Origin: an uncultured delta proteobacterium
GTDB taxonomy: Bacteria; Desulfobacterota; Binatia; JACPRU01
Direction of reading: 5' to 3'
Assembly (NCBI GenBank): GCA_963745025.1
Contig: CAVUWD010000020.1
Span: 32,001-96,000, forward strand
Length of the DNA: 64,000 nucleotides
Both the position numbers and the translations under genes were made by a program. Under the pieces are notes generated by a model. The model was not told the origin of the DNA. It searched no databases and saw only the letters and a program-made list of their open reading frames with translations. Positions 11,061 to 50,829 of the stretch are shown here, one piece after another; position 1 is the first letter of the stretch; each line of letters begins with the position of its first letter.

Positions 11061-13361
<2,301 letters not shown>

Positions 13362-13396
13362 GGGCGCAGGTCGGAAGACTTCCGCCCGTCCTGCCT

Positions 13397-13468
13397 CGAG
13401 CATTTCACGCCGAAGCCGTCGCGGGTCCCCGCTACAACGAGCGCTACATGAAGTGGGTCGACCGGTGA
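13397..13468 (+). pseudogene. 3' remnant of a probable aldo/keto reductase gene
   Basis: Translates as RAFHAEAVAGPRYNERYMKWVDR*, resembling AKR C-termini (..AVAGxRY....M..VxR); no start codon or upstream body. Confidence 0.4.
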
Positions 13469-13490
13469 GCCTCTCCTGTATCCTCTCGCT

Positions 13491-13721
13491 CTTCGCCTCG
13501 AGTGCTGGAGATTCCGAAACGCTGGATTTTCCGGTCGGCCCGTACACGGGGCGACCGGAAAATCCAGCCACCGCGCGAAGCGCGGAAGCGATAGACCAAG
13601 TCGCGGGTTGATTACCTTCCGCGCTTCGCGCGGTGGCGGTCGGTTGTGATCGACCCGAGTACGGGCCGATCACAACCGACCGCGCTCTCCGTCCTTCGAA
13701 GCACTAGGCCTAGAGGCGAAG
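13491..13721. repeat. Symmetric multi-hairpin element, copy 1
   Basis: Perfect stems 13521-37/13552-68 (17 bp), 13567-88/13616-37 (22 bp) and 13636-52/13667-83 (17 bp); closing CTTCGCCTC/GAGGCGAAG and AGTGCT/AGCACT; homologous to 49146-49400. Confidence 0.85.
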
Positions 13722-13782
13722 GCTGAGCCCCTACGCCGTCTCCTCTCTTTAACTCTCGCGCCGCTGACGTTAGTCTCAGACC

Positions 13783-47329: not shown

Positions 47330-49129
47330 TCACCCATCGACCGGCGTCCGCGAACCCCGCCCCGCGTCGGCGTGTGCAGCGCGCGTCTCGTCGAGCAGCC
47401 GCACGAAATCGTCGATCGCGATGTAGCCGACCGTTCGATGCTGCTCTTTGCCGTCCGCGGCGAAGAAGATCGTCGTGGGAACGCCGAGCACTCCGTACTT
47501 GGACAGCAAGCTCTCCGTGTCCTTCGACATCTCCGTGACGTCGGCACGGAGCATCGCGAATTCTCCAACCTTCGCGGTGACCTCCGGTGCAGCGAATGTC
47601 GTCCGCTCCATCTCGAGACAGGGCAGGCACCAATCGGCCCGGAAATCCACGACGGCCGGACGGTCCTGAGCGCGAGCCTCGTCGAGGGCCTGCGTCGAGA
47701 ATTCCCGCCACGAGATGGCGCTCGCTTGCGGCGCGCGCAGCGCGGGCAGCGCAACCCAGAGAGCCGCCAGGAGCGCGCTCGCGCCTGCGGTCCGCTTGAC
47801 GAGAGCGAAGTATCGAAGACGCCGTCCGTGACCGTCGAGAAAGCCGAGGGTGATTCCCGCGCAACCGATCAAGCCCGCCATCGCCCATGGCAGCACGCGA
47901 GTGGGAAGCAAGGGCCGCACGAAGTAGAGCGCGAGGCCCAGGAGCAGGAAACCGAATACCCGCTCCACCCAAACCAACCATTCACCCGAGCGAGGCAACC
48001 GCGTGATCGATCCGGCGGCTGAGCCGAGCACCACGTACGGAGCGCCGAGACCGAGCGCGAGCGTAAAGAAGAGAAGGAACCCGAAGCCCGCTTCGCCTCT
48101 GGCACCGACCGCCAGCAGCAGGCCGACGACGATCGGTCCCACGCAGGGAGCGGCCACGACGCCCATCGTCAGGCCCATGAAGAGCGCGCCCGCGAGCCCG
48201 CCCGCCGTGCCGCCGAATCTCCGGAGCATCCAGGTAGGGGGTTGAAGGGTGTAGACGCCGAAGCTCGAGAGCGCGAGCGCGACCATGAGCGCCGCGATCA
48301 ACACCAAGGTGACCGGCTGCTGCAGCGCAGAGCCGAACAGACCTCCGGAAAGCGCGGCCGCCACGCCGAGGGCGGAGAACGTCAATGCGATGCCAAGGGC
48401 GTAGGCGCTCGCTAGCACGGTCGCCCGCGCGCGCCGCTGTCGTGCCTGGCCACCGAAATACGCGACCGTCACCGAGATGAGCGGGTACACGCACGGCGTG
48501 AGGTTCAGGCCGAGGCCCATGAGGAAGACGAGGGCGAGGGTCGGCGCTAGGCCGTAGCGGGTGAGCCAACTCTCGATCGGAGCCTCGTTGCCCGACGCAC
48601 GAGCGCTTGGGGCCTCGAGGTTCGTCGGCCGCCTGACGAGAAAGGTCCGCGCGACGTCCGCCGGCCGCAGGCAACGCGTGTCGTCGCAGGCCTGGTAATG
48701 GAGCTTCGCCTGGAAGGTCGCCCCCTCCTGGGTGAAGGCCGTTTTGACTGCGAGCGGAATACGGAAGCGAACCTGCCCGCTGTAGAGGAGCAGCGACTCG
48801 TCGCCGGCGAAACCGAGCGTGCGCCTTTCCGGAGCCGGATACTCGATCTCGCCCACCTCGAATCCCGGCGGAGGCGTAACCGAGAGCGTCGTGGGGATCA
48901 GCGCATCCGACAGCGGACGATGTGCGTTGACGTGCCAACCTTCGGTGATCTCGGCGAGCAAGAGGACGTCCAGCGCATCTTGCGAAGGCGAATAGTTCGC
49001 GCTCTCGACTTTCAGTCGGACGATCTCCGCCGGGATCGGTGGAGGATCCGCGGCCATGACCGGGGAGACGACCCGGACGAGCGTGCAGCCGATCGTGAAC
49101 AGTGCAGCCGCGACAAACGAGCGACGCAT
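47330..49129 (-). CDS. dsbD: Thiol:disulfide interchange protein DsbD
   Basis: 'YQACDD..C', 'LTPCVYP', 'APCVGP' and thioredoxin 'DFRADWCLPC'. Confidence 0.92.
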   Translation of the reverse strand: MRRSFVAAALFTIGCTLVRVVSPVMAADPPPIPAEIVRLKVESANYSPSQDALDVLLLAEITEGWHVNAHRPLSDALIPTTLSVTPPPGFEVGEIEYPAPERRTLGFAGDESLLLYSGQVRFRIPLAVKTAFTQEGATFQAKLHYQACDDTRCLRPADVARTFLVRRPTNLEAPSARASGNEAPIESWLTRYGLAPTLALVFLMGLGLNLTPCVYPLISVTVAYFGGQARQRRARATVLASAYALGIALTFSALGVAAALSGGLFGSALQQPVTLVLIAALMVALALSSFGVYTLQPPTWMLRRFGGTAGGLAGALFMGLTMGVVAAPCVGPIVVGLLLAVGARGEAGFGFLLFFTLALGLGAPYVVLGSAAGSITRLPRSGEWLVWVERVFGFLLLGLALYFVRPLLPTRVLPWAMAGLIGCAGITLGFLDGHGRRLRYFALVKRTAGASALLAALWVALPALRAPQASAISWREFSTQALDEARAQDRPAVVDFRADWCLPCLEMERTTFAAPEVTAKVGEFAMLRADVTEMSKDTESLLSKYGVLGVPTTIFFAADGKEQHRTVGYIAIDDFVRLLDETRAAHADAGRGSRTPVDG

Positions 49130-49145
49130 CAAGCGAGACGGTAGT

Positions 49146-49400
49146 GTCTCAGTCTTCGTAGGATGCTCGCCGATACGAAACGCGCGCTTGGTTTTTGTCG
49201 ATCCGTACTCGGATCGACAAAAACCAAGCGCAATAGCGCGAAGCGCTGAACTCAATAGACCAATTCGGTGGCGTATTTGTCTTCCGCGCTTACGCGCGGT
49301 TGCGCTCGGTTTCGATCGACCCGAGCGCGGGCCGATCGAAACCGAGCGCGCTATCCGGTGATCGAAGCGTTCGTACTGAAATTGACGCATCGACCGAGAC
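49146..49400. repeat. Symmetric multi-hairpin element, copy 2
   Basis: Perfect stems 49184-200/49215-31 and 49302-18/49333-49 (17 bp each, 14-nt inserts); GCGCGAAGCGC, ATAGACCAA and CTTCCGCGCTT shared with copy 1. Confidence 0.85.
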
Positions 49401-49409
49401 GACGGATTC

Positions 49410-50591
<1,182 letters not shown>

Positions 50592-50829
50592 ACGACGCTT
50601 CGAGGGTATCGGGGGCCGTCGATGGAGTAAAGGAGGGTCCACCGTCGCCGTCCGTTCCGTGGTTGCCGAAACGGCATTCGTGAAGCATGCGTTGGTTAGA
50701 CCCGAAGCGAAATTATCCGGGCGCGTTCAGGTCACGCAAGAAATTTCGGAACGCGGTTGGACAAGGGCGACGACAGTCTGATAGCGGGTGCGGTCGCCCG
50801 CGATGGGCGGGCCGAAAGGAGACGGAGCC

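Follow-up and report, generated by a model that had tools for sequence, protein, structure and literature searches.

Within the window, that is, the whole 64,000-nucleotide (nt) stretch of DNA that was analysed, the spacer that separates ribBA from dsbD holds a multi-hairpin element. In our assessment (probability about 0.85) this is a copy of a MITE with IS66-family-type ends, and what mobilises it in trans is most likely the transposase of an insertion sequence (IS) of that family. The element belongs to a family of copies with inverted ends (TIRs) and target duplications; insertion sites are polymorphic between species, a matching IS is present, the stems covary, and neither a strand nor an orientation is favoured. 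As an element it is of an ordinary kind, and the compensated changes in its stems are the unusual part. A sequence-only reading had described two copies in the window, here copy 1 and copy 2, and both are present as described, with 81% mean column identity over 273 alignment columns; BLAST of copy 2 on the genome recovers copy 1 at E 2.2e-24.

Copy 2 at the ribBA–dsbD junction

Copy 2 is an insert of 243 bp (49141-49383) between 18-nt direct duplications (49123-49140 and 49384-49401). The element had been placed at 49146-49400; it is real, but its extent is wider, comprising the insert and the 18-nt duplication that flanks it. Its parts and neighbours, and copy 1, are listed below in window coordinates.

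49123-49140, no strand: left 18-nt target duplicate, single in the sister genome G001 (L031, about 1472-1489) and double here
49141-49166, + strand: left TIR, beginning GTAGTGTCTCAG (family alignment)
49184-49231, + strand: long hairpin 1, a perfectly paired 22-bp stem closed by the 4-nt loop TACT (fold prediction)
49235-49247, + strand: mini-hairpin 1, A-GCGC-GAA-GCGC-T (sequence, copy alignment and family pairing)
49250-49281, + strand: centre, weakly palindromic, the least conserved module of the family
49284-49299, + strand: mini-hairpin 2, CCGCGC-TTAC-GCGCGG (sequence and family pairing)
49302-49349, + strand: long hairpin 2, in which an A.C mismatch separates 17 bp from 4 bp, with a 4-nt loop (fold prediction)
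49361-49383, + strand: inner part of the right TIR, the outer ~10 nt being absent (sister copies for comparison: C11:92715, C8:223525)
49384-49401, no strand: right 18-nt target duplicate (sequence and comparison with G001)
49410-50642, - strand: ribBA (DHBP synthase plus GTP cyclohydrolase II), upstream of the insertion (PF00926 3.7e-81, PF00925 2e-46)
47330-49132, - strand: dsbD, immediately downstream of the insertion (PF02683 2.2e-45, PF11412, thioredoxin domains)
13478-13734, + strand: copy 1, full length, main stem type (nhmmer E 3.1e-68, model positions 3-247)

The two 18-nt duplicates are identical to each other at 16 of 18 positions. The left one holds the start region of dsbD (TTG at 49132..49130 and ATG at 49129..49127, - strand), which was duplicated by the insertion, and a second ATG (49390..49388, - strand) lies within the right one. 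An ORF of 686 aa (47330..49390, - strand) stays open across the entire copy, the single such case in the family. The corresponding site is empty in G001, a sister species of the same genus with a gap of about 17 nt between the two genes; here the insertion has put 261 nt of strong hairpins between them. Copy 2 probably arrived after the split from the sister species, landing between the stop of ribBA and the start of dsbD. Its 18-nt duplication and truncated right end are atypical for the family. At this locus, contigs from four public runs are short and of low depth, none spanning the whole element; three public DNA runs cover the right junction in its occupied state, and one contig hints at an allele from which hairpin 1 is deleted. 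Coverage in the one public RNA run is of ribBA only, from a different sequence context.

Both long hairpins had been read as 17+14+17 nt. That arrangement is present, but the 14-nt ‘loops’ are themselves paired, and the stems really measure 22 bp and 17+4 bp with 4-nt loops. The stem sequence of hairpin 1 is subfamily-specific, and all 22 of its 22 pairs are Watson–Crick despite 48% of stem sites being off the family consensus; hairpin 2 is 95% Watson–Crick. The flanks of the two copies are homologous, as had been noted, and the family alignment identifies them as the TIRs.

Copy 1 lies on the + strand, as does copy 2, between + strand topA and a + strand GIDA/TrmFO-like gene, and the gene context agrees with the earlier description of copy 1 as sense to its neighbours and copy 2 as lying between minus-strand genes. 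The target duplication of copy 1 is approximate (CCTCTCCT / CGTCTCCT, a 7/8 match). Its locus in G001 contains 1045 bp of other DNA and no family copy, and an empty site is not definable there.

A dispersed and polymorphic MITE family

With a 252-position profile, nhmmer located 97 non-overlapping family places on 16 of the 20 contigs of the 5.65-Mb genome, 49 of them spanning model positions from at most 25 to at least 225. The element is about 252 bp long (copies 233-269 bp), has no conserved ORF and occurs in both orientations. Its layout is a two-fold symmetric series of palindromes: left TIR, hairpin 1, mini-hairpin, centre, mini-hairpin, hairpin 2 and right TIR. An alignment of 30 copies, with 34 end listings, gives TIRs of 20-35 nt that start GTAA or GTAG and end TTAC, and pairing of positions 5-20 with 249-234 is Watson–Crick in 329 of 441 cells. 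Of 34 full copies, 14 have a perfect 8-bp target duplication and 20 have one that matches at 7 or more positions, against 0.09% and 1.5%, respectively, of 1122 mismatched left/right control pairs; 14 of the 34 have no recognisable 8-bp duplication. Gene context was scored for 66 of the 97 places, with gene calls from a crude GC3-based script that cover ~70% of the genome. All scorable copies are intergenic and sit tightly between genes, with 20 between divergent and 7 between convergent genes; relative to co-directional neighbours, 19 are sense and 20 antisense. Several copies have cleanly lost hairpins, with short direct repeats bounding the lost segment, a pattern that slippage across a palindrome would produce.

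Twelve copies in G001 have both flanks colinear with the present genome, where eight of the loci are without a copy, three share one and one is rearranged. For four G001-specific copies, alignments of the empty sites show intergenic DNA too diverged for clean single-copy targets. G005, a genome of another genus, has related MITEs with the same end type, the same hairpin 1 and an 8-bp duplication (TGCGATCT). On comparison with the related genome G001, the ribBA–dsbD spacer is not orthologously conserved. The earlier proposal of an independently inserted element, and not a cis-regulator, is therefore supported by this empty site, by the TIRs and 8-bp duplications among the 97 copies, by their intergenic placement and random orientation, and by the IS in the same genome.

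The definition of bacterial MITEs in PMC3189936 includes ends that resemble those of a co-resident IS, and presumed mobilisation in trans. The present family is short, below the limit of about 300-500 bp for such elements, and carries no transposase gene, has TIRs and a target duplication of fixed length, is dispersed in polymorphic copies, and has ends in common with an IS. Like Correia/NEMIS, RUP, MITEPsy1 and MITEAba12, it is small and non-coding, with TIRs, a fixed duplication, many intergenic copies and IS-like ends; it differs from these bacterial MITEs in that its presumed partner is an IS66-family (ISBst12-like) element and in that its interior consists of five palindromes arranged symmetrically, with 22-bp stems that covary strongly, and is not an IS deletion remnant. 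The assignment explains ~97 copies, or 18 kb, of intergenic structures, for which riboswitch, terminator or small RNA is not an appropriate annotation. Rhizobium-specific intergenic mosaic elements (RIME) are ~100-bp intergenic mosaics with two large palindromes; their host differs from that of the MITE family, and the likeness is one of general description. A scan of contigs with a 21-nt GC-rich pattern returned 18 stretches, of which the 6 from five other taxa were rejected as chance, with no profile match, and a search of 72,556 plasmid records with copy 1 (BLAST, distant mode) gave no match.

The candidate partner IS

The same genome contains three full 1882-bp IS66-family elements with GTAAGGCCTCAGTCTCCGT at both ends, two of which are flanked by 8-bp duplications (AACGATCG and CTTCTGGA). 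The IS encodes a 468-aa ORF that matches PF03050 (6.2e-38), PF13005 (1.1e-6) and the NCBIfam model transpos_IS66 NF033517 (218.5 bits, cut-off 180); the only other fitting ORF, an upstream one of 105 aa, matches DUF6788 alone, at 27.0 bits versus a cut-off of 27.2. A single large DDE_Tnp_IS66 ORF without IS66 tnpA/tnpB, together with GTAA ends and the 8-bp duplication, places the IS in the ISBst12 group. GTAA ends and an 8-bp target duplication are features of the IS66 family, with which both ISDge4 and the classical element of G001 agree. The ISBst12-group IS66 element ISDge4 has GTGA/GTAA...CTCAG ends and an 8-bp duplication (PMC12898284), and the group is like the partner IS in its end type, its duplication and its one large DDE_Tnp_IS66 transposase; the MITE differs from the group in encoding nothing, with its likeness to the IS confined to the outer ~20 nt.

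Over their first 18 positions, the consensus end of the MITE and the end of the IS agree at 16, and identity to the IS reaches 21/25 in the subfamily of copy 2 and 17/25 in the main subfamily. The left TIR of copy 2 itself is identical to the left end of the IS at 19 of 25 positions (21/25 for the nearest subfamily members), and its right end matches at just 5 of 25. MITE and IS share nothing beyond ~20-25 nt from the ends, so the MITE did not arise from the IS by simple deletion, and because the IS lacks the hairpins, these are cargo of the MITE. The transposase of this IS is the only complete one of IS66 type in the genome (three full copies plus one fragment). The shared ends, the equal duplication length and the co-residence of the two elements suggest that this particular enzyme, a DDE transposase encoded by a single large ISBst12-like ORF, is most likely what moves the MITE in trans.

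It is improbable, though it deserves weighing, that a different or now-lost transposase moved the MITE and that the likeness to the IS reflects a shared end type with no working partnership. G001 has lineage-specific copies, yet a transposase protein query of its assembly (82% complete) did not find the cognate IS or a close homologue, only a classical IS66 element that is 31-32% identical and has different ends (GTAACCGTTCAC); G005 likewise has related MITEs and no match to the 468-aa transposase at E<=1e-20; and the main subfamily agrees with the IS end at only 17/25. The absence of the IS from G001 and G005 is, however, weak evidence, because metagenome assemblies often lack ISs that are present in several copies, and the 16/18 match of the outer ends, the 21/25 match of the copy-2 subfamily, the common 8-bp duplication and the sole complete transposase all speak for the resident element.

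With this IS as the probable mover, the family may represent a new pairing of a MITE with an IS66-family (ISBst12-like) element. A literature search found no published tie between MITEs and IS66, and the term ‘IS66’ occurs 0 times in the accessible parts of two MITE reviews (PMC10969869 and PMC3184786). The transposition chemistry of the IS66 family is poorly known.

Stem pairing, strand and upkeep

The sequence-only reading had assigned the element a preferred folding strand, which the folds do not bear out: both strands of copy 2 fold equally well, at -136.2 kcal/mol (z -9.1) for the + strand and -135.5 kcal/mol (z -10.7) for the - strand, and for each strand 0 of 200 shuffles fold as well. 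Of the 34 full copies, 14 are more stable as the + strand, with a mean difference of 2.4 kcal/mol (sd 8.6; Wilcoxon p 0.13). Single-step stem changes across the family comprise 57 G.U and 50 A.C intermediates, a balance that favours no single RNA strand. Hairpin 1 has an excess of G.T (74 vs 25), which is mirrored in hairpin 2 by an excess of A.C (81 vs 18); such mirrored asymmetry marks an element with two-fold symmetry and does not point to a single folding strand.

Stem complementarity is actively kept while the stem sequence drifts. Across the family, Watson–Crick cells make up 91% of hairpin 1, 92% of hairpin 2, 75% of the TIRs and 55% of the centre (470 of 860 cells). Stem pairing holds steady at 0.91-0.95 as divergence of the unpaired regions climbs from 0.08 to 0.44, and remains at 91-95% even where the ends of a copy have decayed. 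There are 77 compensated double stem changes, versus 0-4 per hairpin in controls with slid partners, and orthologous copies of the two species differ by compensated pairs. The target duplication is unsuitable as an age clock for stem decay, as several young copies have no scorable duplication because of end truncation or an extended right end.

Pairing that persists in copies with decayed ends, compensated changes between orthologues and tight placement between genes could also be read as a host-functional structured RNA or DNA signal (a cis-regulator, terminator, mRNA stabiliser or small RNA) under selection at each locus, which we regard as very unlikely. The site of copy 2 is empty in the sister species and most copies are unshared by the two species; orientation is random, the balanced intermediates favour no RNA strand, hairpins are often deleted from family copies, and the predominance of divergent over convergent gaps is the opposite of that expected of terminators. 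Searched at gathering scores, Rfam gave 0 matches in the whole window, and a permissive search of 49080-49460 gave three chance-level matches (E 0.45-0.73) far under the gathering score; a scan of 48900-49600 detected no promoter-like or terminator-like site, including any U-tract terminator. We accordingly rejected membership in a curated RNA family (riboswitch, terminator or sRNA), given also the 19:20 orientation and the empty G001 site. Compensatory changes in mobile palindromes are, as a caution, not proof of a functional RNA.

A reading of the long hairpins as REP/REPIN-like units that a Y1 (RAYT-type) transposase moves in single-stranded form, with the inverted ends incidental, is hardly credible: the genome has two Y1_Tnp genes, several copies show clean hairpin excision, and REPIN/REP-BIME elements with RAYT are (PMC3116915) similarly intergenic, palindromic, hairpin-forming and of high copy number, with common compensatory changes that uphold the hairpins, but the mobile units here have inverted ends and 8-bp duplications, which are not products of Y1 transposition, both Y1 genes are at least 5 kb from the nearest family copy and are not flanked by copies, hairpin loss falls between short direct repeats, as for slippage, and the hairpins are not self-dispersing. 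This last point follows from the hairpin-tip motif, for which 101 of 105 occurrences lie inside family copies, the other 4 being unrelated or adjacent, and 0 lie in the IS; the motif count was used because a generic scan for long perfect hairpins with one mismatch allowed was too strict, recovering 9 family hairpins.

The strand-neutral pairing of the palindromes agrees with a process acting on DNA, of which templated correction of quasi-palindromes (described in PMC7202029) is an example, and not with selection at the RNA level. As to what keeps the stems paired, we infer that arm-to-arm templated palindrome correction together with exchange between copies is the likeliest cause; selection on active lineages for foldable or cruciform DNA is possible. 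Arm templating and hairpin exchange would make stems turn over faster than the flanking DNA while their complementarity does not decay. More tentatively, and with some doubt on our part, either the palindromes are perfected in place, copy by copy, with one arm as template and whole hairpins exchanged, or short substrates must carry subterminal DNA in a folded or cruciform state for the ISBst12-type IS66 transposase to act on them. If either is true, the family would be a natural system for studying palindrome self-correction or how DNA structure guides the recognition of ends in the IS66 family, itself poorly understood.

The mini-hairpins are also paired across the family, in 466 of 480 cells for mini-hairpin 1 (columns 94-99/104-109) and 440 of 450 for mini-hairpin 2. 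The compensated C-G to A-T change reported in the left mini-hairpin between copy 1 and copy 2 is present in the alignment. Its A-T state (columns 95/108) is common to 6 of 80 family copies, so the change is one event, and as a single event shared by a subfamily it is a weak argument for the mini-hairpin fold as the conserved one. The 22-bp alternative stem between the mini-hairpins, said to be broken in copy 2, is weakened there but not abolished: it comprises 19 contiguous pairs (-44.9 kcal/mol) in copy 1; in copy 2 it is down to 5+6+3 pairs (-27.5 kcal/mol) yet is still the predicted minimum-energy fold.

A two-fold symmetric repeat family

Both multi-hairpin copies recognized in the sequence-only reading were found as claimed, copy 1 at 13478-13734 (+) and copy 2 at 49141-49383 (+), and align with a mean column identity of 81% over 273 columns. 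Their neighbours also agree with that reading: copy 1 is flanked by topA and a GIDA/TrmFO-like gene on the plus strand, copy 2 by ribBA (PF00926, PF00925) and dsbD (PF02683, PF11412) on the minus strand. Our script ends the topA frame at 13361, but an open frame extends beyond it, reaching a TGA near 13466, immediately ahead of copy 1; this extension (13361-13468) could result from a frameshift or a miscall, or represent a small gene.

The source genome (G000; 5.65 Mb, 20 contigs) contains many more copies. BLAST with copy 2 gave 80 matches, blastn with both copies as queries gave 87 merged places, and an nhmmer profile of 252 positions, for which 30 near-full copies were used, detected 97 places that do not overlap and together cover 18,009 bp. 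Model positions from 25 or lower to 225 or higher are covered by 49 of the 97, and those from 9 or lower to 242 or higher by 34. The family alignment shows that the element reaches outward into terminal inverted repeats that are not visible from copies 1 and 2 alone, with the left-end consensus GTAATGCCTCAGTCTTCGCC and a right end that is its reverse complement, ending in TTAC. The whole element is two-fold symmetric, a ‘palindrome of palindromes’ in which a weakly palindromic centre is flanked on either side by a mini-hairpin, then a long hairpin, then the end; the tips of hairpins 1 and 2 are reverse complements of each other. The long hairpins had been described as 17+14+17 nt; they are present, but the 14-nt loops are not unpaired. 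Because these ‘loops’ are self-complementary, we prefer to describe 22-bp stems with 4-nt loops:

49184-49231, +, hairpin 1 of copy 2, 22-bp stem with a 4-nt loop
49302-49349, +, hairpin 2 of copy 2, 4-nt loop, one A.C mismatch in the stem

Of the 34 full copies, 14 are flanked by perfect 8-bp direct repeats, and in 20 at least 7 of the 8 positions agree (control of 1122 mismatched left/right pairs: 0.09% and 1.5%, respectively); 14 of the 34 have no recognizable target duplication. For one young subfamily of 7 copies, the right boundary for this scoring was set 8-10 nt further out. Some copies are mosaics, with C11:92715 and C8:223525 (contig:position) combining a copy-2-type left half with a main-type right half, and several keep both ends with one or both long palindromes gone, the deletions being bounded by short direct repeats. 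At the copy 2 locus, one public run yielded a contig of 157 nt in which 49181 is connected to 49236, with 5 nt of microhomology; this single contig, at a depth of 3.3, is a weak hint of hairpin loss.

Mobility and a matching IS66-family element

The earlier reading of copy 2 as an independently inserted element is borne out by the family, its ends, its duplications and an empty site in the sister genome of the same genus (G001). There, the ribBA–dsbD junction (ribBA protein identity 96%) has no insert, and the likely dsbD start follows the ribBA stop after only about 17 nt. Comparing this spacer, as had been suggested, gave the insert ends and the duplication: an 18-nt stretch that is single in G001 is double in the window (49123-49140 and 49384-49401, 16 of 18 identical) around a 243-bp insert. 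Conversely, 17 fetched G001 loci hold 18 profile matches, 12 of which have both flanks colinear in G000; at 8 of these G000 has a shorter gap and no copy, 3 are shared and 1 locus is rearranged. Family members have therefore moved in both lineages since the split. At the copy 1 locus (window 13367-13736 against L063 2064-3110), the same two flanking genes in G001 enclose 1045 bp of unrelated DNA without a family copy.

The duplication around copy 2 is 18 nt, rather than the usual 8 bp, and takes in the dsbD start region, so that a second ATG adjoins the ribBA stop. The minus-strand ORF 47330..49390 stays in frame across all 261 nt from the duplicated ATG to the original dsbD start; we give this no weight, because an open frame of 87 codons is not rare at 66% G+C.

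Among 40 relatives searched, matches occur only in G001 (30) and in G005, a genome from another genus of the family (5); the 33 genomes of other families gave none. A pattern scan of the genomes of 185,579 species revealed no real copies other than those at 12 loci of a single uncultured delta proteobacterium MAG record, which we did not treat as independent of G001; six further stretches from five other taxa lack a profile match and are not family copies. The related MITE of G005 (L059-L062) shares the end type, hairpin 1 and mini-hairpin 1, has a different right half, and is flanked in L060 by the 8-bp duplication TGCGATCT. Its copy in L061 has a different second hairpin.

Looking in G000 for occurrences of the end motif that lie elsewhere than in the family's own copies, we identified three copies of an IS66-family element:

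C19:80230-82111 (L039 301-2182), 1882-bp IS66-family element, single copy
C6:484414-488185 (L040), two 1882-bp IS66-family elements, head-to-tail tandem with 8 bp between

Each has GTAAGGCCTCAGTCTCCGT at either end, and two of the three are flanked by 8-bp duplications, AACGATCG and CTTCTGGA. Each encodes a 468-aa protein with DDE_Tnp_IS66 (PF03050, 6.2e-38) and zf-IS66 (PF13005, 1.1e-6) domains, scoring 218.5 bits against the NCBIfam transpos_IS66 cut-off of 180, and, upstream of this transposase, a 105-aa ORF whose DUF6788 score (27.0 bits) is just below the cut-off of 27.2. A PF03050 search of all of G000 returned these three copies and one fragment. ISDge4, an IS66 element of the ISBst12 group, has ends of the type GTGA/GTAA...CTCAG, makes an 8-bp duplication and encodes a single transposase, of 449 aa (PMC12898284). 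An IS66-family element of the classical kind, 2.43 kb long, occurs in three copies in G001 (L084 449-2887, L085 452-2890 and L083). It has GTAACCGTTCAC ends, duplications GAATGAAA and ACACGAAC, and a transposase 31-32% identical to the 468-aa protein; it resembles the 1882-bp element in its GTAA ends and 8-bp duplications, but its remaining end sequence differs.

Over the first 18 positions, the MITE consensus end agrees with the IS end at 16; identity is 21/25 for the copy 2 subfamily and 19/25 for copy 2 itself, whose right end lacks the outer 10 nt or so and is only 5/25 identical. Past about 20-25 nt, MITE and IS share no sequence, and the hairpin-tip motif, present 105 times in G000, falls inside a family copy in 101 cases and is absent from the IS. 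This makes the hairpins cargo of the MITE rather than part of the transposase's own ends. The family is thus a recently mobile MITE with IS66-type ends and 8-bp duplications, beside a matching ISBst12-like IS66-family element whose transposase would move it in trans. In a search confined to openly accessible full texts, we found no publication tying a MITE to the IS66 family.

Strand neutrality

A preferred folding strand, as proposed from copies 1 and 2, is unsupported by folding energies, mismatches or stem changes. Copy 2 folds at -136.2 kcal/mol on the plus strand (z -9.1) and -135.5 kcal/mol on the minus strand (z -10.7), with none of 200 shuffles equal in either case. Among the 34 full copies, the plus strand is more stable in 14 (mean difference 2.4 kcal/mol, sd 8.6; Wilcoxon p 0.13, on non-independent copies). 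Plus-strand mismatches number 74 G.T and 25 A.C in hairpin 1, and 18 G.T and 81 A.C in hairpin 2, the mirror expected if each half reads alike from its own end inward. Single-step stem changes on the minimum-spanning tree of distinct stems are balanced between G.U (57) and A.C (50).

The family is not a cis-regulator. Using our own crude GC3-based gene calls (4289 genes, 70% of the genome), we scored the 66 of 97 places that have a neighbour within 350 bp on each side: the flanking genes are co-directional at 39, with the element sense in 19 and antisense in 20, divergent at 20 and convergent at 7. No Rfam family matched at gathering score in the window, and a scan of 48900-49600 found no promoter-like or terminator-like sites.

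Stems that change but stay paired

The mobile-element identity of the family is ordinary: MITEs are already known, and what is added here is a new family from an uncultured lineage. What deserves follow-up is the strand-neutral, structure-preserving turnover of its 22-bp palindromes. Across all copies, Watson–Crick pairs fill 1543/1690 cells (91%) in hairpin 1, 1430/1552 (92%) in hairpin 2, 466/480 and 440/450 in mini-hairpins 1 and 2, 329/441 (75%) in the inverted ends and 470/860 (55%) in the centre, and many stem columns contain three or four pair types. Pairing stays at 0.91-0.95 while divergence from the consensus grows from 0.08 to 0.44 in unpaired regions and from 0.02 to 0.30 in stems; were each site to decay independently, a divergence of 0.30 would leave about half of the pairs intact. 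Minimum-spanning trees of 53 distinct hairpin-1 and 51 distinct hairpin-2 stems contain 77 compensated double changes, against 0-4 per hairpin when the 3′ partner is slid by 1-3 columns.

The compensated C-G to A-T change reported in the left mini-hairpin is present in the copy 1/copy 2 alignment. That state is common to 6 of 80 family copies and is therefore one event. It was thought to break an alternative stem between the mini-hairpins, which is indeed weaker in copy 2 (5+6+3 pairs, -27.5 kcal/mol, against 19 contiguous pairs and -44.9 kcal/mol in copy 1), yet not abolished: the predicted minimum-energy fold of copy 2 still includes it.

Of the three loci that G000 and G001 have in common, two show structure-preserving change in place. 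At C13:239727, three compensated pairs separate the orthologues, and the arm in G000 departs from the common stem type by a compensated G-C to T-A change of its own. At C11:119161, the hairpin-1 stems are entirely different between the two species, each self-complementary, with flanks 87% identical and mini-hairpin and centre identical; no donor within 2 mismatches was found in G000 or the fetched G001 loci. At the third locus, C7:20188, a single site in a stem and a single site in a loop differ.

Three processes fit the balanced G.U/A.C steps and the in-place compensated changes. Quasi-palindromes may undergo templated correction during replication, which makes imperfect inverted repeats more perfect (PMC7202029) and homogenizes repeat arms (PMC8604942); stems may be exchanged between copies; or selection may act on active lineages for DNA that can fold or form cruciforms. 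Selection at the RNA level on a single strand is not consistent with these patterns. REPINs are a precedent for compensatory hairpin change in miniature mobile DNA (PMC3116915). We reject a REPIN/RAYT identity for this family: its hairpins never occur solo, its copies carry inverted ends and target duplications, and the two Y1_Tnp genes lie at least 5 kb from any copy:

C13:188500-188823, Y1_Tnp (IS200/RAYT-type) gene, not flanked by family copies
C11:419866-420189, Y1_Tnp (IS200/RAYT-type) gene, not flanked by family copies

Two further rearrangements involve the inner part of the element. In C13:239727-239967, the mini-hairpin–centre–mini-hairpin block is tandemly duplicated, and the G001 orthologue (L077) is without hairpin 2. 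The copies at C16:85416-85688 and C5:173242-173512 carry the same palindromic insert of about 19 nt in the centre, with a duplication of about 11 nt around it, which may be a smaller nested element or a templated duplication.
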